A stretch of DNA of 64,000 nucleotides. Source: a bacterium. Lineage in GTDB: Bacteria; Auribacterota; Auribacteria; Auribacterales; Auribacteraceae. Position numbers and translations under genes: made by a program. The notes below the pieces were generated by a model. The model did not search any database, was not told where the DNA came from, and saw nothing but the letters and a program-made list of their open reading frames with translations. Of the stretch, positions 5,074 to 32,502 are shown in pieces. The stretch lies in the NCBI GenBank assembly GCA_018435605.1, contig JAHDNF010000004.1, forward strand, positions 184,542 to 248,541, read 5' to 3'. The stretch's first letter is position 1. Each line of letters begins with the position of its first letter.

Positions 5074-5086
5074 AAGACCACTATAT

Positions 5087-5794: not shown

Positions 5795-5795
5795 T

Positions 5796-8700
5796 ATGGC
5801 ACACCGATTTCAATCTATCAGCGATTTTAACTCATTTAAAAATAAACTTCAGTCCACTGAACGGAGAAAAACGCGCATTATGGTCTGCGCCGGAGGCGGA
5901 TGCCTCGCTTCAGGCTCGCTCGATGTAAGCGCGGCGTTCCGCAAAGAAATATTAAACCAGAAAATCGGCGATCAGGCGACTGTCATAGAAACCGGCTGTC
6001 AGGGTTTGTGCGCCGCGGGGCCTGTGGTGACTATTGAGCCGGACGGCATATTTTATGAGAATGTAAAGCCGCAGGATGTGCCTGAAATCGTCAAAGATCA
6101 TATAATGAACGGCAAAGTAGTACAAAGGCTTGTACATAAAGATAACCTAACAGGCGCCCCCATACCTAAAATGCAGGATATCCCCTTTTTTAAAAAACAG
6201 GAAAAGATAGTACTGCGCAACTGCGGAACTATCGATCCTTTGGATATAGAACAATATATCAATAAAGAAGGGTATGCCGGATTAGCCGGCGTACTCGACG
6301 AGATGTCATCCGATCAAATAATCGACACTGTAATAAAATCAGGGTTGCGCGGACGCGGAGGCGCAGGGTTTCTGACCGGCAAGAAATGGAGTTTCGCTCA
6401 AAAAACAGCAGGCGATGTCAAATATGTTCTGTGCAATGCCGACGAAGGCGACCCGGGCGCGTTTATGGATAGAAGTATTCTCGAAGGCGACCCGCACAGT
6501 GTTATAGAAGGCATGGCTATAGCAGGATACGCCATAGGCGCGAATCAGGGTTACGTATACGTCAGAGCTGAATATCCTCTTGCTGTGGAACGTCTTAACC
6601 ATGCAATTATGCAGGCTAGGCAATATGGATTGCTTGGCGACAAAATTCTAGGCACTAATTTTTCTTTTGATCTGGAAATCAGGATGGGGTCCGGCGCTTT
6701 CGTATGCGGCGAAGAAACCGCATTGATCGCGTCTATCGAAGGAAACCGCGGCGAACCGCGGCCAAGGCCTCCGTTTCCGGCGGACAAAGGGTTGTGGAAT
6801 AAACCAAGCCTTCTTAATAACGTAGAAACATTCGCCAATATTCCGGTTATTTTTTCAAAAGGTGCAGACTGGTTCGCCTCTTTTGGCACTGAAAAAAGCA
6901 AAGGCACCAAAGTGTTCGCTCTGGCGGGCGCGGTTAACAATACCGGACTGGTTGAAATTCCCATCGGAACCACTTTAGGAGACCTGATTTACGATATCGG
7001 AGCCGGCATGACGTCCGGTGCGGATTTCAAAGCCGCCCAGATCGGCGGACCCTCCGGAGGATGTGTACCAAAAGAATACCTCAACGTGCCTCTGGATTAC
7101 GAATCGCTCAACGAACTGGGTGCAATCATGGGTTCCGGCGGTTTAATCATTATGGATGACAATACATGCATGGTAGACGTTGCCCGTTACTTTCTCGAAT
7201 TCGTTCAGGAAGAATCATGCGGGAAATGTACTCCGTGCAGAGTCGGAACCAAACGTATGCTGGAAATTCTTACGCGGATTTGCGATGGTCACGGAACTAC
7301 GGACGACCTTTGCATGCTTAACGATCTCGGTGTCATGATCAAAGATACATCACTTTGCGGACTTGGACAAACAGCTCCGAACCCTGTATTGTCCACCATG
7401 AAACATTTTTTTGAAGAATACATCATGCATATTCGCGACAAATATTGCGCCGCCAGCATATGCCCGGCTCTTGTGCGGGCTTCTTGCCAAAATGCTTGTC
7501 CGGCAAATGTGGATATACCGGGTTTCGTATCGTTGATCGGAGAAAAACGGTATGCGGAAGCGCTAAAACTTCATCGCGAACGAAATCCGTTCGCATCTGT
7601 CTGCGCTCGTGTATGTTTTCATACCTGTGAGGATAAATGCAGGCGTTCTACAGTAGACGAACCGGTTTCTATAAGAGGACTCAAACGGTTCATGGTCGAA
7701 CAGGAAGTAACTGTTCAGCTACCGGAATTTCGGGAAAACTCAGCTAACGAAAAACGGAAAATCGCTATTATCGGAGCAGGCCCGGCAGGCTTGTCGTGCG
7801 CGTATTTTCTGGCTCGACTCGGTTACCGTCCGACAATTTTCGAATCGGAACACCGTCCGGGAGGCATGCTTGTGCAAACCATTCCGGCATACAGGCTACC
7901 GCGCGAAGAACTCGCCCGCGAAATCCGCATGATCGAGAATATGGGAGTGTCCATTGAAACCGGCATGCGGCTTGGCGAGAATATATCGTTGAAACAATTA
8001 CGCGATGACGGCTACGACGCTGTTTTCATCGCTGTCGGCGCGCCAAACGGTATGCGTCTTAATGTCAGAGGCGAAGACGCCGACGGCGTATTCGACGCTA
8101 TAGAATACCTGCGCCAATACAACATCCGAGGATCCGTTCCTGTAAAAAAACGTGTCGTTATCATTGGCGGCGGAAATGCCGCCATAGATGCGTCACGCAC
8201 TGCGTTACGGCTCGGCGCAGATCAGGTTACTGTCATGTACCGCAGAACACGAGGCCAGATGCCTGCGTATGCTGAAGAAGTCGTATGCGCCGAAGAAGAA
8301 GGCGTCAAATTCGAATTCCTTGTCGCCCCTACGGAAATAGTCGTGGAAAACGGTCAGGTATCAGGCATCAAATACCGTTACATGACACTCGGAGAGTTCG
8401 ACCGTTCCGGAAGAAGACGCCCGCAGGATATGGGCACGGAAGATTTTTTTATGGAATGCGATCAGGTAATTTCCGCAATCGGACAGTATATGGATCCGAA
8501 AGAAATGTTTACCGATATCAACATCAAACTGACCAGAAATAATCTGATAGAGGCGAATCCGGTAACCGGACAAACATCGGTCGATTGGATTTTTTCCGGC
8601 GGCGACAGCGTTACCGGCGCATCATCAGTGGTGCAGGCAGTAGCCGGCGGCGAACGAGCGGCTATCGGAATCGATATGTTTTTAACCGGTGCAAACCATG

Positions 8701-8912
8701 CTTTTTGGAGAAAAGAAAAAGCGGTTGACACATTCTTCGATCCAGATGCCGATATTGTAGATTGCAAACGAGCCGCCATGCGCCTTGTGCCGGTCATCAA
8801 ACGCAAAAACAACTTCAATGAAGTTGAACTTCCATGGACGGAAGGCGATGCTGTTCGTGAAGCAAAACGTTGTCTGCGTTGCGATTACGGTAAGACTACT
8901 GTGGAAAAATAA
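5796..8912 (+). CDS. NuoF-like FMN/NADH-binding [4Fe-4S] subunit fused to a GltD/NfnB-like FAD/NAD(P)H oxidoreductase domain (1038 aa)
   Basis: N-terminal 2Fe-2S region (VCAGGGCLASGS, CQGLCAAG). NuoF core (GLRGRGGAGF, ESCGKCTPCR). Extra Cys clusters (CPALVRASCQNACP, CARVCFHTCEDKC). Then IAIIGAGPAGLSCAYFLA and VVIIGGGNAAIDASRTA dinucleotide-binding motifs, as in glutamate synthase small chain, SfrB and FdhB. Confidence 0.8.
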   Translation: MAHRFQSISDFNSFKNKLQSTERRKTRIMVCAGGGCLASGSLDVSAAFRKEILNQKIGDQATVIETGCQGLCAAGPVVTIEPDGIFYENVKPQDVPEIVKDHIMNGKVVQRLVHKDNLTGAPIPKMQDIPFFKKQEKIVLRNCGTIDPLDIEQYINKEGYAGLAGVLDEMSSDQIIDTVIKSGLRGRGGAGFLTGKKWSFAQKTAGDVKYVLCNADEGDPGAFMDRSILEGDPHSVIEGMAIAGYAIGANQGYVYVRAEYPLAVERLNHAIMQARQYGLLGDKILGTNFSFDLEIRMGSGAFVCGEETALIASIEGNRGEPRPRPPFPADKGLWNKPSLLNNVETFANIPVIFSKGADWFASFGTEKSKGTKVFALAGAVNNTGLVEIPIGTTLGDLIYDIGAGMTSGADFKAAQIGGPSGGCVPKEYLNVPLDYESLNELGAIMGSGGLIIMDDNTCMVDVARYFLEFVQEESCGKCTPCRVGTKRMLEILTRICDGHGTTDDLCMLNDLGVMIKDTSLCGLGQTAPNPVLSTMKHFFEEYIMHIRDKYCAASICPALVRASCQNACPANVDIPGFVSLIGEKRYAEALKLHRERNPFASVCARVCFHTCEDKCRRSTVDEPVSIRGLKRFMVEQEVTVQLPEFRENSANEKRKIAIIGAGPAGLSCAYFLARLGYRPTIFESEHRPGGMLVQTIPAYRLPREELAREIRMIENMGVSIETGMRLGENISLKQLRDDGYDAVFIAVGAPNGMRLNVRGEDADGVFDAIEYLRQYNIRGSVPVKKRVVIIGGGNAAIDASRTALRLGADQVTVMYRRTRGQMPAYAEEVVCAEEEGVKFEFLVAPTEIVVENGQVSGIKYRYMTLGEFDRSGRRRPQDMGTEDFFMECDQVISAIGQYMDPKEMFTDINIKLTRNNLIEANPVTGQTSVDWIFSGGDSVTGASSVVQAVAGGERAAIGIDMFLTGANHAFWRKEKAVDTFFDPDADIVDCKRAAMRLVPVIKRKNNFNEVELPWTEGDAVREAKRCLRCDYGKTTVEK

Positions 8913-8938
8913 TCCTGATTAACATAGGAGATGAAATT

Positions 8939-10708
8939 ATGCCGAATGTAACGATCAACGGCGTAGATGTGTCGGTTCCAAATGGAACTACCATCCTTGC
9001 CGCCGCTAAAAATGCCGGTTTTGAAATACCCACCTTATGCGCTCTTGAAGATTTACACGCGGTAGGCGCGTGCCGTATATGCGTTGTCGAAGTGGAAGGA
9101 GCAAAAACACCGGTTCCTTCATGCGTTACTCCGGTCAGCGACGGGATGAAAGTATACACCAATACCCAGCGTGTACGCCAATACCGCCGCATGATGGTTG
9201 AACTCTTGCTGTCTGAACACGACGGAGTATGCCAAACATGCAACAGGTTTGCAGACTGCGAATTGCGAAAACTGGCTAACGAACTTAGCATACTTGATGT
9301 CAGGTTTACAGGCGATAAAAAATCACGAAAAATCGATAAAAGCACACCCGGTTTGATGCGCGACAACTCGAAATGTATTCTTTGCCGAAGATGCGTCACC
9401 ATGTGTAACCGGATTCAGGGCGTAGCCGCTTTGTTTCCGCAAAACAGAGGTTTCGAAACATCCATAGGACCGGCATTCTCTACAGACCTTCAGAACGTTT
9501 TTTGCGTGCAGTGCGGACAATGTGCGGCATTATGTCCGGTAGGAGCCATATCGGAAAATAATCACATCAGCGAGGTATGGGCCGCTCTTGATAACCCTGA
9601 TAAATTCGTCGTGGTCGAAACCGCTCCGGCAATACGCGCTTCTATCGGCGAATGTTTCGGGTACGACACCGGCACAGCTGTAACCGGAAAAATGGTAGCA
9701 GCGCTCAGACGGCTAGGCTTTGACGCGGTATTCGATACAAATTTTGCCGCCGATTTGACCATTATGGAAGAAGGAACCGAATTCCTTACACGCCTTAAAG
9801 CAGTTTTCAAAGATAAAAAAGACGCCCCGTTACCGCAGTTTACCAGTTGCTGTCCGGCATGGATCCGTTATGCGGAACATAATTACCCTGAATTATTGCC
9901 CAATATATCTTCGTGCAAATCGCCTCAGCAGATGTTCGGCGCGGTTGCAAAGACATATTACGCAAAAAAACTCGGTAAAAAAGCCGATGATATTGTCGTT
10001 ATATCGGTCATGCCTTGTATAGCAAAAAAATCGGAGGCAATCCGTCCCGAAATGAACGACAGCGGTGTACAGGACGTCGATTACGTGCTGACTACCCGCG
10101 AACTCGGATTGATGATTAAAGAATCGGGCATCGTATTCGAAAATTTACCTGAGGAATACGCAGACGCCCCTATGGGTAAAGGAAGCGGTGCGGCGGATAT
10201 TTTCGCCAATACCGGCGGCGTCATGGAAGCGGCGCTTCGTACGGCGTATGAGATTATCACCGGAAAGTCATTGCCCTTCGAAGATTTGCACATCAAACCC
10301 ATAGAAGGTTTGATAGGAATTAAACGGGCGGAATTCACAATAAAAGGAACCCTTCCGGAATGGTCTTTTCTTGAAGGAGTTACATTGAAAGTAGCGGTTA
10401 CTCATGGGCTTGGGCAGGCGAGAAAATTTGTCGATGCCCTGAAAGCGGGCCAAGAAGAATGTCATTTCATTGAAGTGATGACTTGCCCCGGAGGGTGTAT
10501 CGGAGGAGGCGGACAACCAAGGTTTACTACAGATGAAGTGCGTAATCAGCGTATGAATGTCATTTTCAAAGAGGATGAAGGGAAAAAAGTACGCAAATCA
10601 CACGAAAACCCTGAAGTCATGCGCTTATATGAAGAATTTCTCGGCGCACCTTTAAGTGAAATGTCTCATAAATTACTTCATACTAAGTATAAACCTTCTA
10701 ACAAATAA
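8939..10708 (+). CDS. hydA: [FeFe]-hydrogenase catalytic subunit HydA (N-terminal 2Fe-2S + 4Fe-4S ferredoxin domains + H-cluster domain)
   Basis: H-cluster motifs L1 FTSCCPAW, L2 MPCIAKKSE, L3 EVMTCPGGCIGGGGQP. N-terminal plant-type ferredoxin (GACRICVVEVEG). CILCRRCVTMCN and CVQCGQCAALCP 4Fe-4S motifs. Confidence 0.9.
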   Translation: MPNVTINGVDVSVPNGTTILAAAKNAGFEIPTLCALEDLHAVGACRICVVEVEGAKTPVPSCVTPVSDGMKVYTNTQRVRQYRRMMVELLLSEHDGVCQTCNRFADCELRKLANELSILDVRFTGDKKSRKIDKSTPGLMRDNSKCILCRRCVTMCNRIQGVAALFPQNRGFETSIGPAFSTDLQNVFCVQCGQCAALCPVGAISENNHISEVWAALDNPDKFVVVETAPAIRASIGECFGYDTGTAVTGKMVAALRRLGFDAVFDTNFAADLTIMEEGTEFLTRLKAVFKDKKDAPLPQFTSCCPAWIRYAEHNYPELLPNISSCKSPQQMFGAVAKTYYAKKLGKKADDIVVISVMPCIAKKSEAIRPEMNDSGVQDVDYVLTTRELGLMIKESGIVFENLPEEYADAPMGKGSGAADIFANTGGVMEAALRTAYEIITGKSLPFEDLHIKPIEGLIGIKRAEFTIKGTLPEWSFLEGVTLKVAVTHGLGQARKFVDALKAGQEECHFIEVMTCPGGCIGGGGQPRFTTDEVRNQRMNVIFKEDEGKKVRKSHENPEVMRLYEEFLGAPLSEMSHKLLHTKYKPSNK

Positions 10709-21727: not shown

Positions 21728-21756
21728 TTGACAAAGCATAATTCATGGGTTATATT
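21728..21756 (+). promoter_or_regulatory. Sigma-70-like promoter (TTGACA-17nt-TATATT) for the rex operon
   Basis: TTGACA at 21728-21733, 17-nt spacer, TATATT at 21751-21756. Implies a ~210-nt leader before rex. Confidence 0.35.
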
Positions 21757-21976: not shown

Positions 21977-22621
21977 ATGAACGACCTGAAAATCAGATGC
22001 ACTCCGGAACCAACGCTACGCCGTCTGCCATTGTATTTGGGGTTTTTAAAAGGAATCTCGGATAGAGGCAGAAATATTTCGTGTACCCAGATAGCAAATG
22101 AATTCGGTTTTGATCCGACACAGGTGCGTAAAGATATCGCTCAGACAGGTATTGTAGGAACGGCTAGAATAGGTTATGACACCAAAGACCTGATTTTGCA
22201 AATAGAAACCTTTCTCGGCTGGAACAAAAAACATGAAGCGTTTCTTGCCGGAGCTGGAAACCTCGGAACCGCACTGCTCAAATACAATCTTTTCAAAGAT
22301 GAATACGGACTGGATATCGTTGCGGTTTTTGAGAACGACAAAGCAAAACAAGGAACTCATATTGCGGGCAGGAAGGTACTTCCGGTTGACAAGATTACCG
22401 ATCTGGCTCGCAGGATGCATGTCCCTATCGGAGTTATCGCGATACCGCCCGAAGCGGCACAGAGTGTCGCCGACCGCATGATAGAAGGCGGCATCATCGG
22501 AATATGGAACTTTTGTCCTGTTGCCCTGAAAGTCCCTGAAGGAATAATTGTCGAGAACGCAAGGCTGTCAACCAGTCTTGCCGTATTGACAGGAAAATTG
22601 CATAACTTGCTTAACGCTTAA
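21977..22621 (+). CDS. rex: Redox-sensing transcriptional repressor Rex
   Basis: LRRLPLYLGFL winged-helix region and the Rossmann NADH-binding GAGNLGTAL motif, as in B. subtilis and Thermoanaerobacter Rex. Confidence 0.85.
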   Translation: MNDLKIRCTPEPTLRRLPLYLGFLKGISDRGRNISCTQIANEFGFDPTQVRKDIAQTGIVGTARIGYDTKDLILQIETFLGWNKKHEAFLAGAGNLGTALLKYNLFKDEYGLDIVAVFENDKAKQGTHIAGRKVLPVDKITDLARRMHVPIGVIAIPPEAAQSVADRMIEGGIIGIWNFCPVALKVPEGIIVENARLSTSLAVLTGKLHNLLNA

Positions 22622-22639
22622 AAATAAGGAGGATCTCTC

Positions 22640-23134
22640 ATGCCGCTGAGGAAATTCGAGAAAGTATGCGAAATAATTAACACGTATAACAAAGACAAAT
22701 CAAAACTTATTCCCATCTTGCAGGATGTGCAAAGGGAATACAGATACCTGCCGGAAGAAATTATGGCGTACATCGCCACTTCGCTGGATATACCGCCTGC
22801 AAAGGTATTTGGGGTAGCGTCGTTTTACGCCCATTTTGCTTTGGAGCCGAGAGGCAAACATATTATAAGGTTGTGTTGCGGAACCGCCTGTCATGTTAAA
22901 GGTTCGCTAGGACTGCTCGAAGCGTTGCGAAAACGCCTGAACCTTACCGCCGAAAAACACACTACGGACGATATGCTGTTCACCATCGAAACCGTTTCAT
23001 GTCTTGGGGCGTGCGGTTTGGCGCCGGTCATGGTTATAAATGAAGATGTATACGGACAAGTCACACCGGTTATGGCGGTAAACTTAGTGGAAAAAATTAT
23101 GATAGAGGAGAACGGCAATGAAACAGGCGCTTAA
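22640..23134 (+). CDS. hydC: HydC (NuoE-like [2Fe-2S] subunit) of trimeric bifurcating-type [FeFe]-hydrogenase
   Basis: CCGTACHVKGS ... CLGACGLAPV NuoE-family cysteine motifs. AAGGAGG RBS. Confidence 0.85.
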   Translation: MPLRKFEKVCEIINTYNKDKSKLIPILQDVQREYRYLPEEIMAYIATSLDIPPAKVFGVASFYAHFALEPRGKHIIRLCCGTACHVKGSLGLLEALRKRLNLTAEKHTTDDMLFTIETVSCLGACGLAPVMVINEDVYGQVTPVMAVNLVEKIMIEENGNETGA

Positions 23135-25022
23135 TAATATGTTCGACGATATTTACAAACCGCTTGACGAACCGTGCGCGGGTAAAATTGTAATCTGTAC
23201 CGGCACCGGTTGTGTTGCTAGCGGTTCTCTCAAAGTATTGCAGGCGTTTACTGAAGAGATAAGAAAAGCAGGGTTTGACGTCGCTCAAACCTTGCCGGAA
23301 GCAAAAGAATCAACCCGCCCCGATTCAACAGTCAGATTGTCCAAGAGCGGATGTCAGGGGTTTTGTCAGATGGGGCCGCTGGTAACCGTGCTTCCAGAAA
23401 ATATTCTTTATACAAAAGTAAAACCTGAAGACGTGGCGGAAATTGTAACGGAAACACTCTTGAACAAACGGGTAATAGAACGACTGCTCTATAAAGACCC
23501 GGTAACCAAAGAACCGTGTCAAGGACAAAATGAGATTGTTTTCTATAAACGCCAGTCCCGATTCGTGTTGAAAATGTGCGGCGAACTTGACCCGGAAAGT
23601 ATAGACGAATATATTGAACGCGGAGGCTATGACGCCGCCAAAAAAGCCTATTCCGATATGACGCCCGAACAGATTTGCAAAATGATTCTCGAATCAGGGC
23701 TTCGCGGCAGAGGCGGAGGCGGGTTCCCGACCGGACGAAAATGGGAGCTGACCCGTATTCAACCCGGCGATAAGAAGTATGTTATATGCAACGGCGACGA
23801 AGGCGATCCCGGAGCATTCATGGACCGCAGTGTCATGGAAGGAAATCCACACAGCGTGATCGAAGGAATCATGATAGCCGCCCGAGCTGTCGGAGCCGAC
23901 GAGGCGTATATATACGTAAGGATGGAATACCCGCTGGCGGTAAAACGTCTTCGCAAAGCTGTCGAAGCCGCAGAATCCAAGGGTGTTTTAGGTAAAAACG
24001 TTTTAGGATCAGGCAGACAACTTATATGCCACGTAATGGAAGGCGCCGGAGCTTTTGTCTGCGGAGAAGAAACCGCGCTCATATCGTCTATCGAAGGCAA
24101 ACGAGGTATGCCGTCTCCAAAACCGCCGTTTCCCGCCCAAAAGGGTCTGAACGGCAAACCGACTGTCATAAATAACGTGGAAACACTGGCTACAATACCG
24201 TTGATCGTAAATCTCGGCGTCGAAAAATTCCGGAAAATCGGCAACGAAAAGTCGCCCGGAACCAAAACTTTTGCCTTAAGCGGCCACGTGGCCAACACAG
24301 GATTGATCGAGGTGCCCTTAGGCATAACATTGCGGGAAATTATCTATGATATCGGCGGCGGAGTAACCGATAAACACGGCACTATAACCAACGACGGTTT
24401 CAAGATAGTCCAGATCGGCGGCCCTTCCGGCGGGTGTCTGACAGAACAGCACCTTGAACTGTCCCTCGATTTCGATTCGCTCAGGGAAATCGGAGCTATG
24501 ATCGGTTCCGGCGGACTGGTTTTAATGAACAAAAACACTTGTATGGTGAGCGTTGCGCATTACTTCATGCAGTTTACCCAGAATGAATCGTGCGGAAAAT
24601 GCGTGCTGTGCAGAGAAGGTACAAAGCAGATGTTGTACCTGCTTGAAGACATTATGAACGGTCAGGCAACTGCCCAGACATTGGAATTGCTAGAACAACT
24701 CGCCAGAGTCGTACAGAAAGGATCATTGTGCGGATTGGGTAAAACCGCGCCTAACCCTGTATTGTCGACATTGCGTTATTTCAGGGACGAATACGAAGCG
24801 CATGTGTTCGGCAAACGATGTCCGGCAGGCCAGTGTAAAGCTCTGCTTGTACCTGAAATCGATCCTGAAAAATGTAAAGGATGTACGCTATGCGCCAGAA
24901 AATGCCCTGTTGAAGCCATTACCGGCGAACGCGGCAAACCGCATACTATCGATCCTGAAAAATGTATAAAATGCGGCGCATGCGCGGCCGCGTGTAAATT
25001 CTTAGCTGTAACGGGGGTGTAA
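23118..25022 (+). CDS. hydB: HydB (NuoF-like FMN/NADH subunit with N-terminal 2Fe-2S and C-terminal 2x[4Fe-4S] ferredoxin domain)
   Basis: ICTGTGCVASGS, GLRGRGGGGF, ESCGKCVLCREG, CKGCTLCARKCP, CIKCGACAAACK. Overlaps hydC by 17 nt. Confidence 0.85.
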   Translation: MKQALNNMFDDIYKPLDEPCAGKIVICTGTGCVASGSLKVLQAFTEEIRKAGFDVAQTLPEAKESTRPDSTVRLSKSGCQGFCQMGPLVTVLPENILYTKVKPEDVAEIVTETLLNKRVIERLLYKDPVTKEPCQGQNEIVFYKRQSRFVLKMCGELDPESIDEYIERGGYDAAKKAYSDMTPEQICKMILESGLRGRGGGGFPTGRKWELTRIQPGDKKYVICNGDEGDPGAFMDRSVMEGNPHSVIEGIMIAARAVGADEAYIYVRMEYPLAVKRLRKAVEAAESKGVLGKNVLGSGRQLICHVMEGAGAFVCGEETALISSIEGKRGMPSPKPPFPAQKGLNGKPTVINNVETLATIPLIVNLGVEKFRKIGNEKSPGTKTFALSGHVANTGLIEVPLGITLREIIYDIGGGVTDKHGTITNDGFKIVQIGGPSGGCLTEQHLELSLDFDSLREIGAMIGSGGLVLMNKNTCMVSVAHYFMQFTQNESCGKCVLCREGTKQMLYLLEDIMNGQATAQTLELLEQLARVVQKGSLCGLGKTAPNPVLSTLRYFRDEYEAHVFGKRCPAGQCKALLVPEIDPEKCKGCTLCARKCPVEAITGERGKPHTIDPEKCIKCGACAAACKFLAVTGV

Positions 25023-25023
25023 C

Positions 25024-27033
25024 ATGAACAAAAAAGCCTTTATATATGTGGATGGAATTAAAGCTCCTATCAACGGTGAACGGAACCTGCTCGAAGTTAT
25101 AAGAAAAGCGAACATAGATATACCGACGTTCTGTTACCATTCCGAATTGAGCGTTTACGGCGCATGCAGAATGTGCATGGTCGATGTGGAAGGGCAGGGA
25201 TTGATGGCATCGTGTTCCGTTGCCCCTCAACCGGATATGAAAGTCAAAACCAATACGGCGGAGATACGGGAACTGCGTAAAATAGCGGTGGAACTCCTGC
25301 TTGCCAACCACGAGAAAAGTTGCCCGACCTGTAAACGAAGCGCTACTTGTAAACTGCAGGATTTAGGCAGAAAACTAGGTATTGACAAAGTTCGCTTTAA
25401 ACCGATCAACAAACAACAACCGCTCGAAGACGCATCCCAAGTACTGGTTCGCGACCCTAACAAATGTATACTATGCGGTGACTGTGTCCGCATGTGCGCC
25501 GAGGTTCAGGGAATTGGCGCAATTGATTTTGCCTATAGGGGACACGACGTGGCGGTATTACCGGCATTCGGCAAAAGTCTTGATAAAGTGGAATGTGTGT
25601 TCTGCGGACAGTGCGCTCGCGTATGCCCGACCGGAGCTTTGACCGCAAAGTCACACGTCCAAGAAGTCTGGAAAGCGCTCGACGATAAAAATAAAAAAGT
25701 GGTAGTTCAAATTGCGCCGGCAGTACGTGTAGCAATAGGCGAAATGTTCGGTAAAGAACCGGGAACCGTCAGTACCGGACAGATAGTCTCAGCATTAAAA
25801 ATACTCGGTTTTGACAGGGTCTACGATACGTGTTTTGCCGCAGACCTTACCGTTATCGAGGAAGGTAGCGAATTCATACGGCGTGTAACGCAAGACGGCG
25901 CTCTGCCTCAGTTTACATCGTGTTGCCCGGGATGGGTGAAATTTGTCGAACAATATTATCCGGAGTATCTTGATAATTTGTCCACATGCCGCTCTCCCCA
26001 ACAGATGTTCGGCTCGCTGGCTAAAAAAATATTGCCTGACGATTTGAATGTCGCGCCGAAAGATTTGGTTGTGGTATCTATCATGCCGTGTACAGCCAAA
26101 AAATTCGAAGCGGCAAGACCGGAATTTCTACGGGACGAAATACCTGACGTGGATTATGTCTTAACCACACAGGAACTGGGACAAATGATCGAATCTAGCG
26201 GCATCAATTTCGTCAATCTGCAACCGGAATCGCTCGATTTACCGTTAGGATTCAAAACCGGCGCAGGGGTCATTTTCGGCAACACCGGAGGAGTCAGTGA
26301 AGCAGTCCTGCGGTTTTTGAATGAAAAACTTACAGGCAACACACAAGATAACTTCGAGTTTACTGAGGTACGTGGAACAGAGGGAATCCGTGAAGCCCAA
26401 GTTACTTTCGACGGCAAAACATACAGTCTGGCAGTCGTGCACGGACTGGGCAACGCTCGTAAACTGATAGAAAATATAAAAAACGGATCATGCCGCTATG
26501 ACCTTATCGAAGTCATGTCTTGCCCGGGCGGTTGTATAGGCGGGGCAGGCCAGCCGATTTCCTTCGATTCCGATACCAGAGAAAAACGTACAAAGGCTCT
26601 GTATGAAGCGGATAAAATGCTTCAGCTACATAAATCGCAGGAAAATCCATATATTAAAAAATGTTACGATACACATTTGGGCGAAGTCGGCGGCGCTGTA
26701 GCCCATCATCTTTTGCATACCCATTACAAGAGCAGAAAACGCATACACGACGCTGACCTGTCGCTCATGGCGTCCAAAGAAGCCCAACAACTGGAAATCA
26801 GAGTCTGCGTAGGAACCAGCTGTTATCTGCGCGGTTCACAGGATTTGTTACACGCGCTACTTTGCGATATCCATCACAGCGATCTAAAAGACAAGGTGGA
26901 CGTCAAGGCTACATTCTGCTTTGAAAAATGCTCGCAGGGGCCGGTTGTGCGAATCGGCGACAAACTGGTTACTTCAGCTACATTAGAAAAAGTCAAAGAG
27001 GAAATCGAATCGCAGTTGCGTAAACGACAATAA
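25024..27033 (+). CDS. hydA: HydA catalytic [FeFe]-hydrogenase with a fused C-terminal NuoE-like thioredoxin-fold [2Fe-2S] domain (Thermotoga HydA-like architecture)
   Basis: L1 FTSCCPGW, L2 MPCTAKKFE, L3 EVMSCPGGCIGGAGQP. C-terminal ~100 aa with CVGTSCYLRGS ... CFEKCSQGP. Confidence 0.9.
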   Translation: MNKKAFIYVDGIKAPINGERNLLEVIRKANIDIPTFCYHSELSVYGACRMCMVDVEGQGLMASCSVAPQPDMKVKTNTAEIRELRKIAVELLLANHEKSCPTCKRSATCKLQDLGRKLGIDKVRFKPINKQQPLEDASQVLVRDPNKCILCGDCVRMCAEVQGIGAIDFAYRGHDVAVLPAFGKSLDKVECVFCGQCARVCPTGALTAKSHVQEVWKALDDKNKKVVVQIAPAVRVAIGEMFGKEPGTVSTGQIVSALKILGFDRVYDTCFAADLTVIEEGSEFIRRVTQDGALPQFTSCCPGWVKFVEQYYPEYLDNLSTCRSPQQMFGSLAKKILPDDLNVAPKDLVVVSIMPCTAKKFEAARPEFLRDEIPDVDYVLTTQELGQMIESSGINFVNLQPESLDLPLGFKTGAGVIFGNTGGVSEAVLRFLNEKLTGNTQDNFEFTEVRGTEGIREAQVTFDGKTYSLAVVHGLGNARKLIENIKNGSCRYDLIEVMSCPGGCIGGAGQPISFDSDTREKRTKALYEADKMLQLHKSQENPYIKKCYDTHLGEVGGAVAHHLLHTHYKSRKRIHDADLSLMASKEAQQLEIRVCVGTSCYLRGSQDLLHALLCDIHHSDLKDKVDVKATFCFEKCSQGPVVRIGDKLVTSATLEKVKEEIESQLRKRQ

Positions 27034-27047
27034 CCGGAGGCATACCG

Positions 27048-28778
27048 ATGAATAACAGCCAGCCCAATCAGATCGTATATACCAACAACGCCCGGTGCAG
27101 AGATTGTTACCGGTGTATACGGGTATGTCCGGTCAAGGCAATTCAGATAAAAAACGGCCAGGCTTTCGTTGACCCGCAGAGGTGTATTGTATGCGGAACA
27201 TGCATCAGGGAATGCCCGCAAGGCGCTAAGACTTATAGGCACGACATAGAACAAGCCGCCACACTGGCGGCGCAACGCACTGTCGCAGTAAGCATAGCGC
27301 CGTCTTATGCCGCTGTTTTTCCCGACTGGCAACGCAAAAGGCTGGCTTCCGCTTTGAGAAAGCTGGGGTTTGATTATATTGCCGAAACGGCGATAGGCGC
27401 GTACCTGTCCGCGAAAAAAACAGTAGAATACACCTCAGCCAAGTGCGATATGCCGCATATTTGCACAGCTTGTCCTGCGGTGGTCAATTACGTCGAAAAA
27501 TATAACGACAATTACATTAATCTGCTTGTTCCGGCTGTATCGCCCATGGTCGCTCACGCTAAATTTTTAAAAGAAAAATACGGGAAAAATACAGCAGTAG
27601 TTTTTATAGGGCCGTGCGTGGCAAAAAAAGCCGAAGCGCAACGCGACGAGTATTCATCGCTAATCGATTGCGTATTAACCTTTGAGGAACTGTTTATATG
27701 GTTTGAACAGGCGGGCATCAATCTTAAAACATGCGAAGAAAGCGATTTCGACGACTATCCTCCCGCTGAGGCGCGATATTATTCTATAGAAGGAGGATGG
27801 CTGAAAACCGCCGGTTGCGGCAGTGACCGCTTTGACTCCATGTACCTGTGCGTAAGCGGATTTGAGTCGGTAGAAGAATCACTGAAAACCGTTGCCGAAC
27901 TGGAAAAACCGTGTATAGTCGAACCGCTGTTCTGCCCGCACGGATGCATCAACGGACCGGGAATTCATACTCAAGGCAACCTGTTTACCCGGCGCACAGC
28001 AATTATAGAACACGCCGGAGAAAATAAACCGGAGCGTATAAATAAAACTCCGGAAACTCAAGCCGATTTGACAACATCGTTTATAAAACGGTCTTCGGAT
28101 ATTCTCAAAAATGTTTCCCAAGATAAAGTCAGGGAAGTACTTGAAAAGACCGGTAAACTAAACGAGGCCGATCAACTCAACTGCGGCGCATGCGGATATC
28201 CGACATGCCGACAGCAGGCTATAGCCGTTGTGCAGGGCATGGCTGAAATAGATATGTGTATACCTTTCATGCGCCGCCTTGCCGAACAACGGTCAGACCG
28301 GATAATAGAAACCAGCCCGAACGGCATGGTCATTGTAGACGAGGACTTGCGCATCCTTACCATGAATCCGGCATTCAGGAAAATGTTCCTGTGCTCGGAA
28401 AATATTTTCGGCAAAAATATTTCACGGCTCATGGACCCTGAACATTTCATAAAAGTTATCTCAGGCAAAGAAGAAACAGTTACCGCCGTGGTATATCATC
28501 AACGATACGGCCTTATTTGCCATCAGGTGTTTTATATGCTCAAAGACGAACGCCAGATTGTGGGCATCTTTCTTGACATCACCAAAAGCCATACCGATCA
28601 TAAGCGCCTCGAAGAACTTAAAGCAAAAACCATTTTGCAGGCTCGGGAACTGTATGAACATCAAATCGGAATGGCAAGCGAATTTGCCAGATTTCTCGGC
28701 GAGTATACAGCCAAAGGGGAAAAACTGATCGATAACCTCATGCAGTTGAACGATAACCCGCAAGAGGGCGTAGATTGA
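27048..28778 (+). CDS. hydS: Sensory-type [FeFe]-hydrogenase (HydS/HfsB-like, group C): 2x[4Fe-4S] N-term, modified H-cluster domain, Cx2Cx4Cx16C cluster, C-terminal PAS domain
   Basis: CRDCYRCIRVCP and CIVCGTCIRECP. L1 is altered to CTACPAV (canonical TSCCPxW). L2 GPCVAKKAE. L3 EPLFCPHGCINGPG. Also CGACGYPTC-x16-C, and a PAS-like C-terminus (IIETSPNGMVIVDEDLRILTMNPAFRKMF). Confidence 0.75.
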   Translation: MNNSQPNQIVYTNNARCRDCYRCIRVCPVKAIQIKNGQAFVDPQRCIVCGTCIRECPQGAKTYRHDIEQAATLAAQRTVAVSIAPSYAAVFPDWQRKRLASALRKLGFDYIAETAIGAYLSAKKTVEYTSAKCDMPHICTACPAVVNYVEKYNDNYINLLVPAVSPMVAHAKFLKEKYGKNTAVVFIGPCVAKKAEAQRDEYSSLIDCVLTFEELFIWFEQAGINLKTCEESDFDDYPPAEARYYSIEGGWLKTAGCGSDRFDSMYLCVSGFESVEESLKTVAELEKPCIVEPLFCPHGCINGPGIHTQGNLFTRRTAIIEHAGENKPERINKTPETQADLTTSFIKRSSDILKNVSQDKVREVLEKTGKLNEADQLNCGACGYPTCRQQAIAVVQGMAEIDMCIPFMRRLAEQRSDRIIETSPNGMVIVDEDLRILTMNPAFRKMFLCSENIFGKNISRLMDPEHFIKVISGKEETVTAVVYHQRYGLICHQVFYMLKDERQIVGIFLDITKSHTDHKRLEELKAKTILQARELYEHQIGMASEFARFLGEYTAKGEKLIDNLMQLNDNPQEGVD

Positions 28779-29932
28779 TCATGATGAAAAACTCTTTTGT
28801 CGATATCTACTATAAACAATCTTCAAAAAGACCCGGCGACCCGTGCGGCGATGTGGTTGTATATAAGCGGGACGCCTACCACACCACAATTCTGCTGGTC
28901 GACGGCATCGGTTCGGGTATCAAAGCTCATATTGCCGCAACAATGAACTCGGCTCGTATCATGCAAATGCTTGCGGACGGGTTTTCTGTTCGCGACGTTT
29001 TTTCCCATATGGTAAAAACCATGAACGAATGGCGCAACTACGACAAACCGTTTTCAGCATTCACCCTTACACGCATTATGCACGACGGCACAGCAACAAT
29101 GCTCTCATACGAGGCTCCGGTACCGTTACTGCTAGGCGCTCGCGAAGCGTATGTGCTTCCCGCACAAACGTTGACTATCGGTGAAGCATTGGTCAGCGAA
29201 ATAGATTATCACCTAAGGCACGGCGAGGGCGTCGTACTGGTTTCAGACGGTATAACCCAAGCAGGAATAGGCAACGGACTTCCCAGAGGCTGGACTATCG
29301 AAGGCGTCAACGGATTTGTCAACCGCCTTGTTTCCCGCTCAACACCAACGGAAGATATCCCAGATCAAATTATTCAAGAGGCTTTTGTGATTGACGGATC
29401 TACATTCAACGACGATTGTACTGTAATAGCCGCCCCGTTTCGACACGGGCATGTGGTTACCATATTAACCGGACCTCCCGAATCACCCGCCGACGATGAA
29501 AAATCAATCGCAATGTTTCTTGAAAACAAAGGCACTAAAATCGTATGCGGGTCAACAACCGCTAATATTGTCGCAAGACACCTCAATACCGAGGTGCGGG
29601 TAGAGCATAACCGCAGGAATACAGGGACACCTCCGCAATATTTCATTGACGGGATCGATCTGGTAACAGAAGGAGCGATTACCCTTAATCAACTGCATAA
29701 TATCCTCGACGAAGATTTGCTCAACACAGCCGAACGAAGCGCTGTTTTCGATCTGTGGCAACAAATAATGGAATCCGACCGGATTCAGTTCATGGTAGGA
29801 AAAAAAATCAACTCTGCCAGCGACGATATAATATGGCGCAAACAAGGTATTTTACCGCGTATCCGCATTGTCAACCTGCTGGCAAAAAAACTCGAATCCA
29901 TGGGCAAACTGGTTACCATAACCTACGTATAA
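28775..29932 (+). CDS. PP2C-family (SpoIIE/RsbU-like) serine phosphatase with an uncharacterised C-terminal domain, translationally coupled to hydS
   Basis: GDVVVY...TTILLVDGIGSGIKAHIAA and VVLVSDGITQAG match PPM/SpoIIE metal-binding motifs. ATGA overlap with the hydS stop. Confidence 0.6.
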   Translation: MIMMKNSFVDIYYKQSSKRPGDPCGDVVVYKRDAYHTTILLVDGIGSGIKAHIAATMNSARIMQMLADGFSVRDVFSHMVKTMNEWRNYDKPFSAFTLTRIMHDGTATMLSYEAPVPLLLGAREAYVLPAQTLTIGEALVSEIDYHLRHGEGVVLVSDGITQAGIGNGLPRGWTIEGVNGFVNRLVSRSTPTEDIPDQIIQEAFVIDGSTFNDDCTVIAAPFRHGHVVTILTGPPESPADDEKSIAMFLENKGTKIVCGSTTANIVARHLNTEVRVEHNRRNTGTPPQYFIDGIDLVTEGAITLNQLHNILDEDLLNTAERSAVFDLWQQIMESDRIQFMVGKKINSASDDIIWRKQGILPRIRIVNLLAKKLESMGKLVTITYV

Positions 29933-30184
29933 TACTTGCTGTAGCCTAAATGAATTAAGCCTGCATCGAACTGCTAACTTCCAATCCTTTTATCTTTTCA
30001 GAATTTTATCAAACAATAACTGGTACGGATTTTGTATAATCAAGGTATTTGAATTTATTGTTTTACGGGGAAAGACGGTTTGTGTAATTTTTACACACTA
30101 TGACGACGATTTATTTCATAAATACAACACTAAAGAGACATCTGTTACCAACGGATAATCCGAATCATGACAGGAGGAACACCC

Positions 30185-30796
30185 ATGAGCGAAAGACCGC
30201 CATTTTTTAAACGCAAATACATTGTGAACAAAGAATTACAGTTCCACATATCTATTGTCATGATTATGGAAATTCTTCTCATGGCAATTGTTATGAGTAC
30301 AATTATCGTATGCCTGAACAATTACTATCAAGAGATATTTCAGTATATCGCAGGTACTACCGAGTTGCAGACTCCATTGCGGGAAATAAATAAACCGATA
30401 TGGCTGTTTATGCTGGGTAGTGTAAGTTTTAGTGTGTTTGTTTTTGCTCTGGTAGGTATTTTTTTGTCTCACAAAATCGCCGGCCCTTTATACCGCATGA
30501 AACGTATAATGATTGATATCGGTAAAGGAAAATTGCCCCGTGAAATACGGTTTCGCAAAGGCGACCATATGCATGACATGGCTGACGCCCTAAATGAAAT
30601 GGTGCTTGGATTGCAAAACCGCGACAAAACGACTCTTGAGGCTATAAATAAAATAGAACGCATTGTTAACGAGTTAGCCAAAGCACTTGCCGATTCAAAT
30701 CAGACTAAAAAACGCGATGAGTCCATTCAGCAACATCTTGGAGAATTGAATAGACTGATTGAAACGGAAAAAATCAAACACCCGGAAATAGCGTAA
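30185..30796 (+). CDS. Small membrane protein with two TM helices and a HAMP domain, no output domain
   Basis: Two hydrophobic segments, then IAGPLYRMKRIMIDIGKGKLPREIRFRKGDHMHDMADALNEMVLGL (HAMP pattern). AGGAGG RBS before the ATG at 30185. Confidence 0.5.
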   Translation: MSERPPFFKRKYIVNKELQFHISIVMIMEILLMAIVMSTIIVCLNNYYQEIFQYIAGTTELQTPLREINKPIWLFMLGSVSFSVFVFALVGIFLSHKIAGPLYRMKRIMIDIGKGKLPREIRFRKGDHMHDMADALNEMVLGLQNRDKTTLEAINKIERIVNELAKALADSNQTKKRDESIQQHLGELNRLIETEKIKHPEIA

Positions 30797-30807
30797 GGAG
30801 TTGATCC

Positions 30808-32502
30808 GTGAAAATTTCACCGCATCGTGAACTGAAGTCTAACAATATCGGATTCACTTTGCTTGAGCTGGTTGTAGTGGTAGCTGTATTAATGGTTGTT
30901 CTCTCAATTATAATCGCCGCTTCGCGTGAACTCAAGTATCATTCCAATCTTGCGTTTTGTATGAATAATCTGCGGCAGATTTCCCTTGCAATGGTAACCT
31001 ATCATAACGATCATAACGACTATCCGTACGGCTTGCCTTACGATACTTTGAGCAACCAATTGAGCAGATATTTATCCAGCGACAAGATATTTGTCTGCCC
31101 GCAGGATGATTACGAATCCGTAGACAGTTACAGCCAATTTTATTGTTATCCCGGTCAAGATGCTGATGGTAGCAAATATGTTGTGGGATGCCCTCGCCAT
31201 AAACGCGGCAGTCTGTGCGCCGCGGTTTTGGGTTTTCAGACGGCTTACATGACAAAATCGGCTAAAGTGACGGTGGATAATGTGGCTATTCGCACAGGTT
31301 GCGCTACTTCTGGCACAATGAATCTGGAAGACGGAACTACGATCAGTTCGAACGACATAGAGATGCACCTCGTGCAGTCGTTTCGCATGGCGGACGGATC
31401 TCTGTATACTATAATTCGCGTTCCTGAAGGAGAAACAGGTTCTTTGACTGTCAACGCTACCGAAGGAACGCAACTGGAGATTGTTACTCCTTCGCTTATA
31501 GCGGCTATTCGCGGAACTGCGTTTACAGTCGAGGTACAGTATGATAACGATTTACCTCTATCCAGTATATATGTTCATGACGGAATGGTTGAAGTACAAC
31601 CCATAAACGGTTTGCGCAGGGTTGATAACGAATTCGTAGCGGCAGGCAAACGGGGCATGCACCTACGCCCCGGTGAATCGGTACAGATATATACTGAACC
31701 TCAGAAAATAAATATATCTGCGCTCAATACCAGAGTTGAAGCTTTGCAGGCTAAAATCCGCCGCGGTCTTGCGAGCGGAAAAGATATGAACCCTGAAATA
31801 GGTATGATCAAATGGCTAATGTCTTTCAGCAGTACTCCGGTATCTTTGGATTTTCCATCCGCAAAACCGGTCTATGATTTTTCCGGATCATATAATTCGG
31901 TAGCCGAAGCGCGGCAAGGGGCAATGAATGCGGTTCAAGGCATAAACAACGAAATGGATAATACAAGAACGGCTAAAAACTTCATTAAAAATATTGCCAA
32001 CGAAGCGGAAAAAACATTAGGCGCTATTGTCAGGGATGCTGACACGTCGCAGAAACAATTAAATAAAGTGGTGGATGATTTATCCAAAAATAAACTCAGC
32101 AAAGCTATGGAATCCGCTCAAGCCGCTCAGGATGCCGCTATCGCCGCAGAACAGAAGGCTATTTTGATCAATCAACAGCTTCAGGCCGCTCAGCAAGCTA
32201 AGATAAATGCTGATAATGCCGTGGCCAGAGCGCAAGAATTAGCCGGCCATGCGGAAACCGCCGCTAACCAAGCCGCGGTGCTCGCTCAAGGCAACCCAAC
32301 TGAAACCGGAAACGCACAACAGGCTAGAGTCTTAGCGGAAAAAGCTGTGAATGAAGTCCAAAAAGCTATACAGGAAGCGAATCAGTCGGCTATAGATTTA
32401 TATAACATAATGCAGGCGCTACAAACTGCCAATGAAACCGCGGGATCCGCACGGTCATCGGCAAATCAGGCAAATCAACTGATCAGTCAGCACGGCAATT
32501 GA
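30808..32502 (+). CDS. Prepilin-type N-terminal cleavage/methylation-domain protein (DUF1559-like N-terminal region) with a long C-terminal Ala/Gln-rich coiled coil
   Basis: Class-III signal N-IGFTLLELVVVVAVLMVV (G-1, F+1, E+5). CMNNLRQISLAMVTYHNDH resembles the CxNNLKQIGLA..YH block of PVC-type DUF1559/H-X9-DG proteins. C-terminus has QAAQDAAIAAEQKAILINQQLQAAQQAK... repeats. GTG start with AAGGAG RBS. Confidence 0.5.
   Translation: MKISPHRELKSNNIGFTLLELVVVVAVLMVVLSIIIAASRELKYHSNLAFCMNNLRQISLAMVTYHNDHNDYPYGLPYDTLSNQLSRYLSSDKIFVCPQDDYESVDSYSQFYCYPGQDADGSKYVVGCPRHKRGSLCAAVLGFQTAYMTKSAKVTVDNVAIRTGCATSGTMNLEDGTTISSNDIEMHLVQSFRMADGSLYTIIRVPEGETGSLTVNATEGTQLEIVTPSLIAAIRGTAFTVEVQYDNDLPLSSIYVHDGMVEVQPINGLRRVDNEFVAAGKRGMHLRPGESVQIYTEPQKINISALNTRVEALQAKIRRGLASGKDMNPEIGMIKWLMSFSSTPVSLDFPSAKPVYDFSGSYNSVAEARQGAMNAVQGINNEMDNTRTAKNFIKNIANEAEKTLGAIVRDADTSQKQLNKVVDDLSKNKLSKAMESAQAAQDAAIAAEQKAILINQQLQAAQQAKINADNAVARAQELAGHAETAANQAAVLAQGNPTETGNAQQARVLAEKAVNEVQKAIQEANQSAIDLYNIMQALQTANETAGSARSSANQANQLISQHGN

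Follow-up and report, generated by a model that had tools for sequence, protein, structure and literature searches.

The window analysed here, a stretch of 64,000 nucleotides from a Candidatus Auribacterota MAG, contains a six-gene operon, rex-hydC-hydB-hydA-hydS-pp2c, whose last two genes encode a putative sensory [FeFe]-hydrogenase (HydS) and a PP2C phosphatase. Taken as a whole, the locus is best explained, with good probability, by H2 sensing at HydS that is signalled through the phosphatase within a Rex-controlled operon. The six genes (Table 1) follow one another at spacings of 18, -17, 1, 14 and 2 nt, and 234 nt separate the last from the next gene. HydA is of the A6/A3 type and is accompanied by NuoE-like and NuoF-like subunits (Pfam, NCBIfam), the composition that defines the HydABC trimer; it carries the motifs TSCCPGW, MPCTAKK and EVMSCPGGC, and its proton relay (E279, E282, R286 and S319) is complete in the alignment. 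By these sequence features HydABC is a predicted Thermotoga-type NADH/ferredoxin-dependent (electron-bifurcating or confurcating) [FeFe]-hydrogenase.

Table 1. Features of the operon and its upstream region, in window coordinates
Feature	Position	Strand	Details
Rex operator-like palindrome TTGTGAAAAAAATCACAA	21704..21721	.	1 mismatch to TTGTGAANNNNTTCACAA
Best sigma-70-like promoter match, TTGACA-17-TATATT	21728..21756	+	just downstream of the Rex box
Six-gene operon	21977..29932	+	rex-hydC-hydB-hydA-hydS-pp2c
rex, redox-sensing (NADH/NAD+) repressor	21977..22621	+	NCBIfam NF003994 equivalog, 251 bits vs cut-off 130; Pfam Put_DNA-bind_N and CoA_binding
hydC, NuoE-like [2Fe-2S] subunit	22640..23134	+	Pfam 2Fe-2S_thioredx 4e-51
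hydB, NuoF-like flavin/NADH subunit with C-terminal 2x[4Fe-4S] domain	23118..25022	+	Pfam Complex1_51K 2.6e-48, NADH_4Fe-4S 5.9e-34, Fer4
hydA, catalytic group A [FeFe]-hydrogenase, trimeric NADH-dependent type	25024..27033	+	NF040763 'group A6', 784 bits vs cut-off 765
hydS, putative sensory group C (M2f) [FeFe]-hydrogenase	27048..28778	+	576 aa
hydS, 2x[4Fe-4S] motifs	27096-27218	+
hydS, H-domain	27279-27959	+	L1 27462-27482, L2 27609-27635, L3 27921-27962
hydS, accessory Cx2Cx4Cx16C	28182-28259	+
hydS, PAS domain	28296-28583	+
hydS, helical tail	28584-28775	+
pp2c, HfsC-type PPM/PP2C (SpoIIE-family) phosphatase	28781..29932	+
pp2c, PPM domain	about 28880-29434	+
pp2c, putative metal-binding motifs		+	CGD 28844-28852, DGIGSG 28901-28918, SDGI 29243-29254, NDDC 29408-29419
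pp2c, predicted Rossmann-like C-terminal domain	29444-29929	+	TGPP 29468-29479, DLVTEGAITLNQ 29657-29692

The first-pass annotation, made from the letters of the DNA, had described the operon as Rex-controlled, and this view gained support from a candidate operator beside the best promoter-like site upstream of rex. It differs at one position from TTGTGAANNNNTTCACAA, which we take, from established knowledge of Rex regulons, to be the Rex operator consensus, and it is the sole such site in the 64 kb, where shuffled sequences predict 0.01. The sigma-70-like site agrees with its consensus at 11 of 12 positions, the best score between 21400 and 30400, and is a consensus match only. With both a Rex protein and a candidate operator in the promoter region, the operon has the expected signature of Rex regulation. 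Of 31 related loci, 6 also have Rex-box-like sites ahead of rex (0.27 expected), so the consensus is enriched yet missing in most of them; this absence probably reflects lineage-specific operator variants.

HydS shows the H-cluster scaffold, the two 4Fe-4S motifs and the exact Cx2Cx4Cx16C motif with which it had initially been described. The two N-terminal motifs are CRDCYRCIRVCP (residues 17-28) and CIVCGTCIRECP (residues 46-57), matched by Pfam Fer4 and Fer4_10, while L1, L2 and L3 of the H-cluster site read CTACPAV (residues 139-145), GPCVAKKAE (residues 188-196) and EPLFCPHGCINGPG (residues 292-305), and CGACGYPTC-x16-C spans residues 379-404. The Pfam search that had been proposed for this gene pair matched all three expected profiles, Fe_hyd_lg_C, PAS and SpoIIE. 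Fe_hyd_lg_C covers HydS residues 78-304 (1.3e-52), and FeS PF04060 covers residues 376-406 (4e-12). PAS_8 (7.1e-8; 32.5 bits, cut-off 21.8) and PAS (4.2e-7; 30.4 bits, cut-off 22.6) both match residues 417-471, and a PAS_9 match runs to residue 512.

We aligned HydS with HydA of the same operon and with the solved HydA1 (8a6t), using CpI numbering. The four H-cluster ligands are kept (Cys142, Cys190, Cys296 and Cys300, equivalent to CpI C300, C355, C499 and C503), as is K358. Ala141 lies opposite the first Cys of TSCCP, that is CpI C299, which upholds the original reading of L1 as a replacement of the proton-relay Cys by Ala. M353 is replaced by Gly and M497 by Leu, and E279, E282 and R286, all present in HydA, are replaced or deleted. 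Judged from the alignment, HydS has a complete H-cluster binding site and lacks the catalytic proton relay. In an NJ tree it falls within a clade of 66 phosphatase-linked orthologues (itself and 65 others), which includes the Thermotogae and Thermoanaerobacter loci and stands apart from HydA and from the HfsD-like monomeric enzymes; its identity is 42% (median) to this clade, 27% to HydA and 29% to the HfsD-like enzymes. Across all 66 orthologues the H-cluster ligands and K358 show little or no variation, and every one of these proteins also has the PAS domain and the accessory cluster. A Cys is kept at the C299 position in 22 of the 66, so the loss of C299 is not universal in the clade.

The sequence features that define the M2f, or group C, putative sensory [FeFe]-hydrogenases have been published (PMC8163306, PMC13104023, PMC10055695), the Cx2Cx4Cx16C motif and the PAS domain being part of the M2f definition (PMC8163306, PMC13104023), and HydDB lists subgroup C3 as 'phosphatase-linked (putative)' group C (PMC5037454). 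Every such feature is present in HydS, its phosphatase neighbour agrees with the C3 description, and its scores lie below the NCBIfam cut-offs for group A (100.6 against 406) and group B1 (189.6 against 450). The published features thus support HydS as a putative sensory group C (M2f; HydDB C3-type) hydrogenase, in keeping with the H2-sensor architecture at first suspected; for the reference group C enzymes, too, the literature terms the sensory role putative.

HydS was compared by published features with TmHydS, to which only distant sequence identity is to be expected. The two share the order of 2x[4Fe-4S], H-domain, Cx2Cx4Cx16C and PAS, an Ala at CpI C299 and a Gly at CpI M353, the lack of a group A proton relay (PMC10055695; published residues), and an operon that also encodes another hydrogenase. 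They differ at CpI M497, where HydS has Leu in place of Ser, a position that is variable among sensory enzymes (PMC10055695). HydS also resembles the M2e (group D) enzymes, which have N-terminal 2x[4Fe-4S], an H-domain, a C-terminal Cx2Cx4Cx16C and no proton relay, and are found beside bifurcating HydABC (PMC8163306); it is not an M2e enzyme because it has a PAS domain and a Gly at M353.

The phosphatase reading frame (28775-29932, + strand) encodes 385 aa from TTG 28775 or 383 aa from ATG 28781. Translational coupling to hydS through an ATGA overlap had been proposed, and the tight spacing was upheld while the overlap was not: the junction reads ...GTA GAT TGA TC ATG ATG AAA, so that 2 nt separate the hydS stop from ATG 28781, and the overlap (TTGA) is confined to the weaker start, TTG 28775. 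The case for tight coupling of the two genes holds without the ATGA. The identification of the gene as a PPM/SpoIIE phosphatase proved correct, with SpoIIE PF07228 scoring 55 bits against a cut-off of 25 over residues 36-220 (Pfam). Neither of the two outcomes named beforehand as refuting the sensor-phosphatase reading thus arose: properly aligned, HydS lacks the proton-relay Cys, and the profile search identifies the gene after it as a PPM. Its structural model matches SpoIIE, RsbU and RsbX with E values from 7e-16 to 6e-12 (Foldseek: SpoIIE 5mqh, 6.9e-16; also RsbU 3ke6 and RsbX 3w40). D24, D41/G42, D156/G157 and D211/D212, putative metal ligands by motif position, are invariant in 30 homologues, and the enzyme looks catalytically intact, as an HfsC-type PP2C. 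SpoIIE, RsbU and RsbX are the best structural matches of its N-terminal domain and have the SpoIIE Pfam family and the metal-binding Asp motifs in common with it. Unlike these enzymes, it has no STAS substrate or anti-sigma Ser kinase adjacent to it, either in the window operon or in 80 related loci, and its presumed regulatory module, a predicted Rossmann-like domain seen only in this family among the inspected matches, lies at the C-terminus, whereas in SpoIIE and RsbU the module is an N-terminal domain.

A fold search with the whole chain matched PP2C domains alone and nothing on the C-terminal half, which was therefore modelled separately; the model has a Rossmann-like fold. This half has no Pfam match at E<=0.01, and its best hit in a profile search against PDB sequences was eIF2-alpha (E 0.49), taken as chance. 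The 180-aa C-terminal domain had been thought special to the window gene, but it is conserved at full length throughout the phosphatase family, including the Thermoanaerobacter, Fervidobacterium and Clostridium members, with about 25 invariant residues, among them TGPP and DLVTEGxxTLNQ. Among the inspected matches it is restricted to the HydS-linked phosphatase family, and it finds no mention in the literature cited here. Speculatively, and with considerable doubt, the domain may supply the missing link in HydS signalling, either as a docking module for the signal from the PAS domain and helical tail or as a second sensor for a nucleotide-type ligand, for instance NAD(H). If it did bind such a ligand, the phosphatase would be a two-input device for H2 and a metabolite. 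The domain offers a concrete target for studies of how HydS transmits its signal.

Using the phosphatase as query, we retrieved 80 related loci, 75 of them with enough upstream DNA. HydS lies immediately upstream of the phosphatase in 68 of the 75, and the hydS stop and pp2c start overlap or abut in most loci. The presence of the sensor in a rex-hydCBA operon had been put forward as distinctive, a view that did not survive this comparison: the exact order Rex-HydC-HydB-HydA-HydS-PP2C is found in 19 loci (from Omnitrophota, Planctomycetota, Ignavibacteria-type bacteria, Bacteroidales, Armatimonadota, Bacillota and others), and among the closest relatives the commonest arrangement is a rex-hydCBA operon with the sensor at its end. 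Since this layout recurs in many bacterial phyla, the locus is ordinary. It adds a Candidatus Auribacterota example and nothing beyond what the catalogued class already shows, and it belongs to a widely conserved rex-hydCBA-hydS-pp2c unit present in at least eight phylum-level groups. The pair is also kept where a monomeric HfsD-like enzyme takes the place of HydABC as companion hydrogenase, and where the order changes to HydS-PP2C-HydCBA-Rex, as in the Thermotogae-type locus of Fervidobacterium (HydS-PP2C-HydC-HydB-HydA-Rex). More generally, M2e and M2f genes are often in one operon with group A hydrogenases (PMC8163306).

That the locus offers the sensor no partner besides the phosphatase, another trait once considered peculiar to the window, turns out to be the rule. 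Between -9 and +5 kb of the pair, no kinase, STAS protein or regulator other than Rex recurs in the 80 loci, and the search space for the output of [FeFe] H2 sensors narrows accordingly. Additional recurrent 'families' near the pair were rejected as antisense shadow ORFs of the hyd genes. A 209-aa HAMP-like membrane protein encoded downstream (30167-30796) was likewise dropped as a partner, because it is next to the pair in no related locus. A PADLOC scan of HydS and the phosphatase was empty, and the two are therefore without a link to a defence system.

The closest described counterparts of the pair are HfsB/HfsC of T. saccharolyticum and HydS with its phosphatase in R. albus (C3), in which a PAS-bearing HydS is likewise followed by a SpoIIE-type phosphatase of about 380-390 aa with the same C-terminal domain. 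Thermoanaerobacter, Clostridium and Oscillospiraceae loci give full-length phosphatase matches and have tight start/stop coupling, as in the window, at an identity of only about 28-32% between the window phosphatase and those of Firmicutes. The T. saccharolyticum and R. albus pairs are accompanied by a monomeric ferredoxin-dependent hydrogenase (HfsD/HydA2) and by a small ORF resembling HfsA, whereas the window pair follows the trimeric HydABC and Rex; the R. albus cluster is reported to include AdhE as well, which is not part of the window operon.

The sequence of events that we propose begins with H2, which would be bound and slowly turned over at the H-cluster of HydS. The redox change would reach the C-terminal [4Fe-4S] cluster and alter the PAS domain and helical tail, and this alteration would modify the activity of the phosphatase, which coupling of the genes would supply in fixed proportion to HydS and which is probably complexed with it. 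The substrate of the phosphatase would be a phospho-Ser/Thr protein whose gene lies elsewhere in the genome, and this target, once dephosphorylated, would adjust the expression of hydrogenase or fermentation genes, or the activity of enzymes. Rex would add a second input, the NADH/NAD+ ratio, by controlling transcription of all six genes, the sensor pair among them. In R. albus, a group C gene and its phosphatase subunit are reported to be co-transcribed with a hydrogenase and strongly H2-responsive (PMC6776011). Deletions of hfsB (sensor) and hfsC (phosphatase) in T. saccharolyticum gave opposite fermentation phenotypes (PMC5707799), which agrees, by analogy, with control of the phosphatase by the sensor.

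We think it distinctly unlikely that HydS reads the redox state of the cell, that is reduced ferredoxin or the electron pool, and not H2 itself. In that case the two N-terminal [4Fe-4S] clusters would be the entry point for electrons and the H-cluster a reference or slow vent, and the PAS domain and phosphatase would respond to the redox state of the clusters. Such a role would suit the fully conserved N-terminal ferredoxin-like domain, the PAS domain of HfsB, possibly responsive to cell redox potential (PMC11837493), and an operon that already appears to answer to the redox sensor Rex; however, the near invariance of the H-cluster ligands and K358 argues that the H-cluster is essential, TamHydS has a raised affinity for H2 (PMC8163306), and regulation in R. 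albus is reported to follow H2 levels (PMC6776011). It is very improbable that HydS is instead a low-activity catalytic hydrogenase or an extra HydABC subunit, next to an unrelated phosphatase through co-expression only. The pair stays together despite changes of hydrogenase and gene order, with conserved start/stop coupling; the PAS domain and accessory cluster are universal among the orthologues, and all of these lack the proton relay, even though 22 keep the C299 Cys. These observations stand against the complete H-cluster site, the low yet measurable activities of TmHydS and TamHydS (PMC8163306, PMC10055695) and the co-transcription of hydS with hydCBA that gene spacing suggests.

A further alternative retains the same sensor and changes its output: the phosphatase would act directly on a HydABC subunit or on Rex, so that the hydrogenase would be controlled post-translationally instead of by partner switching or through a transcription factor. 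The literature cited here documents no phosphorylation of HydABC or Rex, loci with unrelated monomeric hydrogenases and loci that lack Rex contain the pair as well, and the closest folds are those of the partner-switching phosphatases SpoIIE, RsbU and RsbX, with STAS and other partner-switching genes present elsewhere in the window. We regard direct action on HydABC or Rex as rather unlikely, although recurrence with the pair is limited to the hydrogenase structural genes and rex, and results from T. saccharolyticum point tentatively to post-transcriptional effects (PMC5707799). H2 sensing by HydS with signalling to a target encoded elsewhere remains our preferred reading.

Further PP2C and STAS genes do lie near the heat-shock genes, as the first-pass annotation had noted. 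The STAS gene is 26 kb from the HydS-PP2C pair, beside a different GAF-PP2C.

The 576-residue HydS has the composition that Land et al. describe for M2f (group C) enzymes, namely two N-terminal [4Fe-4S] motifs, an H-domain, a Cx2Cx4Cx16C motif and a PAS domain, with C299 (CpI numbering) and the proton pathway missing. Group D (TamHydS) is without a PAS domain (PMC13104023). ORF calling verified both reading frames of the first-pass annotation, and direct reading found every motif quoted there at its exact residues (Table). In alignments with the upstream HydA and, using HMMER, with solved group A enzymes (8a6t and others), Ala141 lies opposite the first Cys of TSCCP, the proton-relay residue C299, and Cys142 opposite the [4Fe-4S]H ligand, which upholds the proposed exchange of the relay Cys for Ala. 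Column-based read-out gave Ala, Gly and Leu at C299, M353 and M497; E279, E282 and R286 are missing, while C300, C355, C499, C503, K358 and S319 are retained. In both HydA proteins of the window the C299, M353, M497, relay and ligand positions all carry the catalytic residues. HydS keeps an intact H-cluster site and lacks the group A proton relay. TmHydS has Ala, Gly and Ser at the three positions, and Gly is the most frequent residue at M353 among sensory enzymes (about 51%) (PMC10055695). A PDB sequence search with HydS retrieved no solved group C or D structure, the top matches being catalytic enzymes.

Features of the HydS locus and of other hydrogenase and signalling genes in the window (residue numbers refer to HydS)
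Feature	Position	Strand	Basis or remark
Fur-family regulator	4636-5073	-	divergent to second hydrogenase cluster
Second cluster, NuoE-like subunit	5264-5794		
Second cluster, HydB, 1038 aa	5796-8912		NuoF-like, fused to GltD/NfnB-like Fer4_20 + Pyr_redox_2 module
Second cluster, HydA, 589 aa	8939-10708		catalytic, full TSCCP + proton relay
Rex-operator palindrome TTGTGAAAAAAATCACAA	21704-21721		1 mismatch to consensus
Promoter-like match TTGACA-17-TATATT	21728-21756		best in region
rex	21977-22621		NF003994, 251 bits (cut-off 130)
hydC			NuoE-like
hydB			NuoF-like
hydA			NCBIfam 'NADH-dependent [FeFe] hydrogenase, group A6', 784 (cut-off 765)
hydS, 576 aa	27048-28778	+	
Two 4Fe-4S ferredoxin motifs	N-terminal part		Pfam
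Fe_hyd_lg_C	residues 78-304		Pfam, 1.3e-52
CTACPAV	residues 139-145		
GPCVAKKAE	residues 188-196		
EPLFCPHGCINGPG	residues 292-305		
'FeS' domain PF04060	residues 376-406		Pfam
CGACGYPTC-x16-C	residues 379-404		
PAS	residues 417-471		PAS_8 and PAS exceed gathering scores; PAS_9 reaches 512
pp2c ORF	28775-29932	+	Pfam SpoIIE, 55 bits (cut-off 25)
Antisense ORFs, 80-190 aa, over hydB/hydA/hydS/pp2c	22046-29845	-	sense-frame shadows, not genes
209-aa membrane protein and 564-aa DUF1559 protein	30167-32502		
Response-regulator-GAF-SpoIIE phosphatase, 760 aa	46642-48924	-	
Hybrid PAS-HisKA-HATPase-receiver kinase, 817 aa	53440-55893	+	
STAS-domain protein	56400-56936		directly before GAF-SpoIIE PP2C
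GAF-SpoIIE PP2C	57057-58433		just 5' of grpE
grpE	58580-59227		
648-aa ORF	59417-61363		presumably dnaK

These features were compared across the 66 phosphatase-linked orthologues longer than 500 aa from the related loci. All 66 have the four H-cluster Cys ligands and the Cx2Cx4Cx16C motif, beyond which a tail of 160-224 aa (median 171) extends, and none has the E279/E282/R286 relay residues. C299 is Ala in 33, Cys in 22 and Ser in 8; M353 is Gly in 56; M497 is Leu in 35 and Ser in 21, so that the HydS of the window carries the commonest residue at each position. The 22 proteins with Cys at C299 still miss E279, E282 and R286. Judged from the alignment, the clade is therefore defined by absence of the remaining pathway residues and not by absence of the relay Cys. 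Neighbour joining on 300 H-domain columns groups the 66 proteins in a single clade that includes neither HydA nor HfsD-like sequences; the median identity of HydS to this clade is 42%, compared with 27% for HydA and 29% for HfsD-like enzymes.

The phosphatase expected downstream was borne out by its Pfam match. The ATGA overlap described for the junction is absent: it reads GTA GAT TGA TC ATG ATG, and the pp2c ATG therefore lies 2 nt past the hydS stop. The only start overlapping that stop is a TTG at 28775, and the 100% identical database entry from a Candidatus Auribacterota MAG (383 aa) begins at the ATG. Tight coupling of the two genes stands nevertheless. The gaps between the six operon genes are 18, -17, 1, 14 and 2 nt in order, with the next gene after 234 nt. 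The Rex-operator palindrome is the sole such site in 64 kb (0.01 expected by chance), and because it lies directly 5' of the best promoter-like match, regulation of the operon by Rex is plausible. Two genes follow beyond the 234-nt gap. One encodes a membrane protein that matches HAMP weakly, the other a protein that combines DUF1559 with a prepilin-type methylation motif at the N terminus, as is typical of PVC-group bacteria; neither is kept beside HydS-PP2C in related loci.

Homologues of the phosphatase number >3,000, and almost all of the top 120 are 380-384 aa in length. A 30-sequence phosphatase alignment, scanned against a single genome of each species, gave 594 confirmed loci; 80 were retained, and their ORFs were called and labelled by similarity to the six window proteins. 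Of the 75 loci whose upstream DNA extends to 1.8 kb or more, 68 have a HydS-like gene that ends no more than 400 nt from the phosphatase start, which shows that the HydS-PP2C pairing is conserved. Stop and start overlap or abut in most loci, with a true ATGA overlap in many. The exact order Rex-HydC-HydB-HydA-HydS-PP2C on one strand occurs in 19 of the 80, from Omnitrophota, Thermoguttaceae, Anaerohalosphaeraceae, 'delta proteobacteria', Ignavibacteriales, Bacteroidales, Firestonebacteria, Bacillota, Oscillospiraceae and Armatimonadota, and in truncated or split form in several more. Alternative contexts are HydS-PP2C-HydC-HydB-HydA-Rex, as in Fervidobacterium, and in Clostridia an hfsABCD-like arrangement of a small ORF, HydS, PP2C and a monomeric hydrogenase of ~475 aa. 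Clustering of all ORFs from -9 to +5 kb of the phosphatase in the 80 loci revealed no other recurrent family, including no kinase, STAS protein or non-Rex transcription factor; the leftover clusters were rejected as partner families, being antisense shadow ORFs. ORFs similar to the antisense ones of the window recur in up to 59 related loci. Assignment of HydS to the putative sensory group C is supported by motifs, alignment and phosphatase neighbour. The features singled out as distinctive, a sensor within a Rex-hydCBA operon, a phosphatase as sole partner and its 180-aa C-terminal extension, are the norm of the family, and the locus is an ordinary example of a class that is already known and catalogued.

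Only the phosphatase offers a lead of some value, in its unannotated C-terminal domain. An AlphaFold2 model from a 30-homologue alignment is confident (pLDDT 89.8); in predicted fold, its N-terminal two-thirds resembles SpoIIE (5mqh, E 6.9e-16), RsbX, SiaA and the RsbU domain of Rv1364c. The expected metal-site motifs GD24, D41-G42, D156-G157 and D211-D212 are invariant, and the PPM site looks intact. The C-terminal 162 residues, in which about 25 positions are invariant (TGPP and DLVTEGxxTLNQ among them), have no Pfam match and no relative among PDB sequences; modelled alone, they give a Rossmann-like alpha/beta domain (pLDDT 89.9, pTM 0.86). A profile of this domain had 926 matches among 1.84 billion representative proteins. 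The domain appears specific to the HydS-linked phosphatase family, since the best 150 of these matches always place it at about residues 222-382 of ~380-aa proteins or at the C-terminal end of shorter ORFs, which are probably fragments.

We propose that the H-cluster of HydS would react with H2, that the redox change would pass to the C-terminal [4Fe-4S] cluster, and that the PAS domain and helical tail would then change conformation. The co-translated phosphatase would in turn be modulated, possibly via its Rossmann-like domain, and would remove phosphate from a protein encoded elsewhere, with Rex superimposing NADH/NAD+ control on the entire operon. In T. saccharolyticum, deletions of hfsB and hfsC have opposite phenotypes (PMC5707799). 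HydS might instead sense a redox pool rather than H2; with the H-cluster ligands kept, we regard this as unlikely. That it is a minor catalytic subunit of HydABC, next to which it is encoded, is highly improbable for a protein missing the relay. Direct post-translational action of the phosphatase on HydABC or Rex, its operon neighbours, is rather unlikely. As to substrates elsewhere, the STAS protein of the window is conceivable as a putative target of the PP2Cs of this genome. The further PP2C/STAS genes reported near heat-shock genes do lie beside grpE, and from their sequences the pair looks like a partner-switching system.

A second multimeric [FeFe]-hydrogenase cluster (4636-10708) lies 11 kb upstream, with no HydS, PP2C or Rex box; the module fused to its HydB suggests NADPH coupling. 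In one 'Pseudomonadota' MAG (L007), the ~10-kb region upstream of rex-hydCBA-hydS-pp2c holds a second HydS-like gene on the opposite strand. Its 448-aa product has Cx2Cx4Cx16C and SSACPAV and is too short for a PAS domain, so that an M2e / group D-like and an M2f sensor could lie on either side of one operon.
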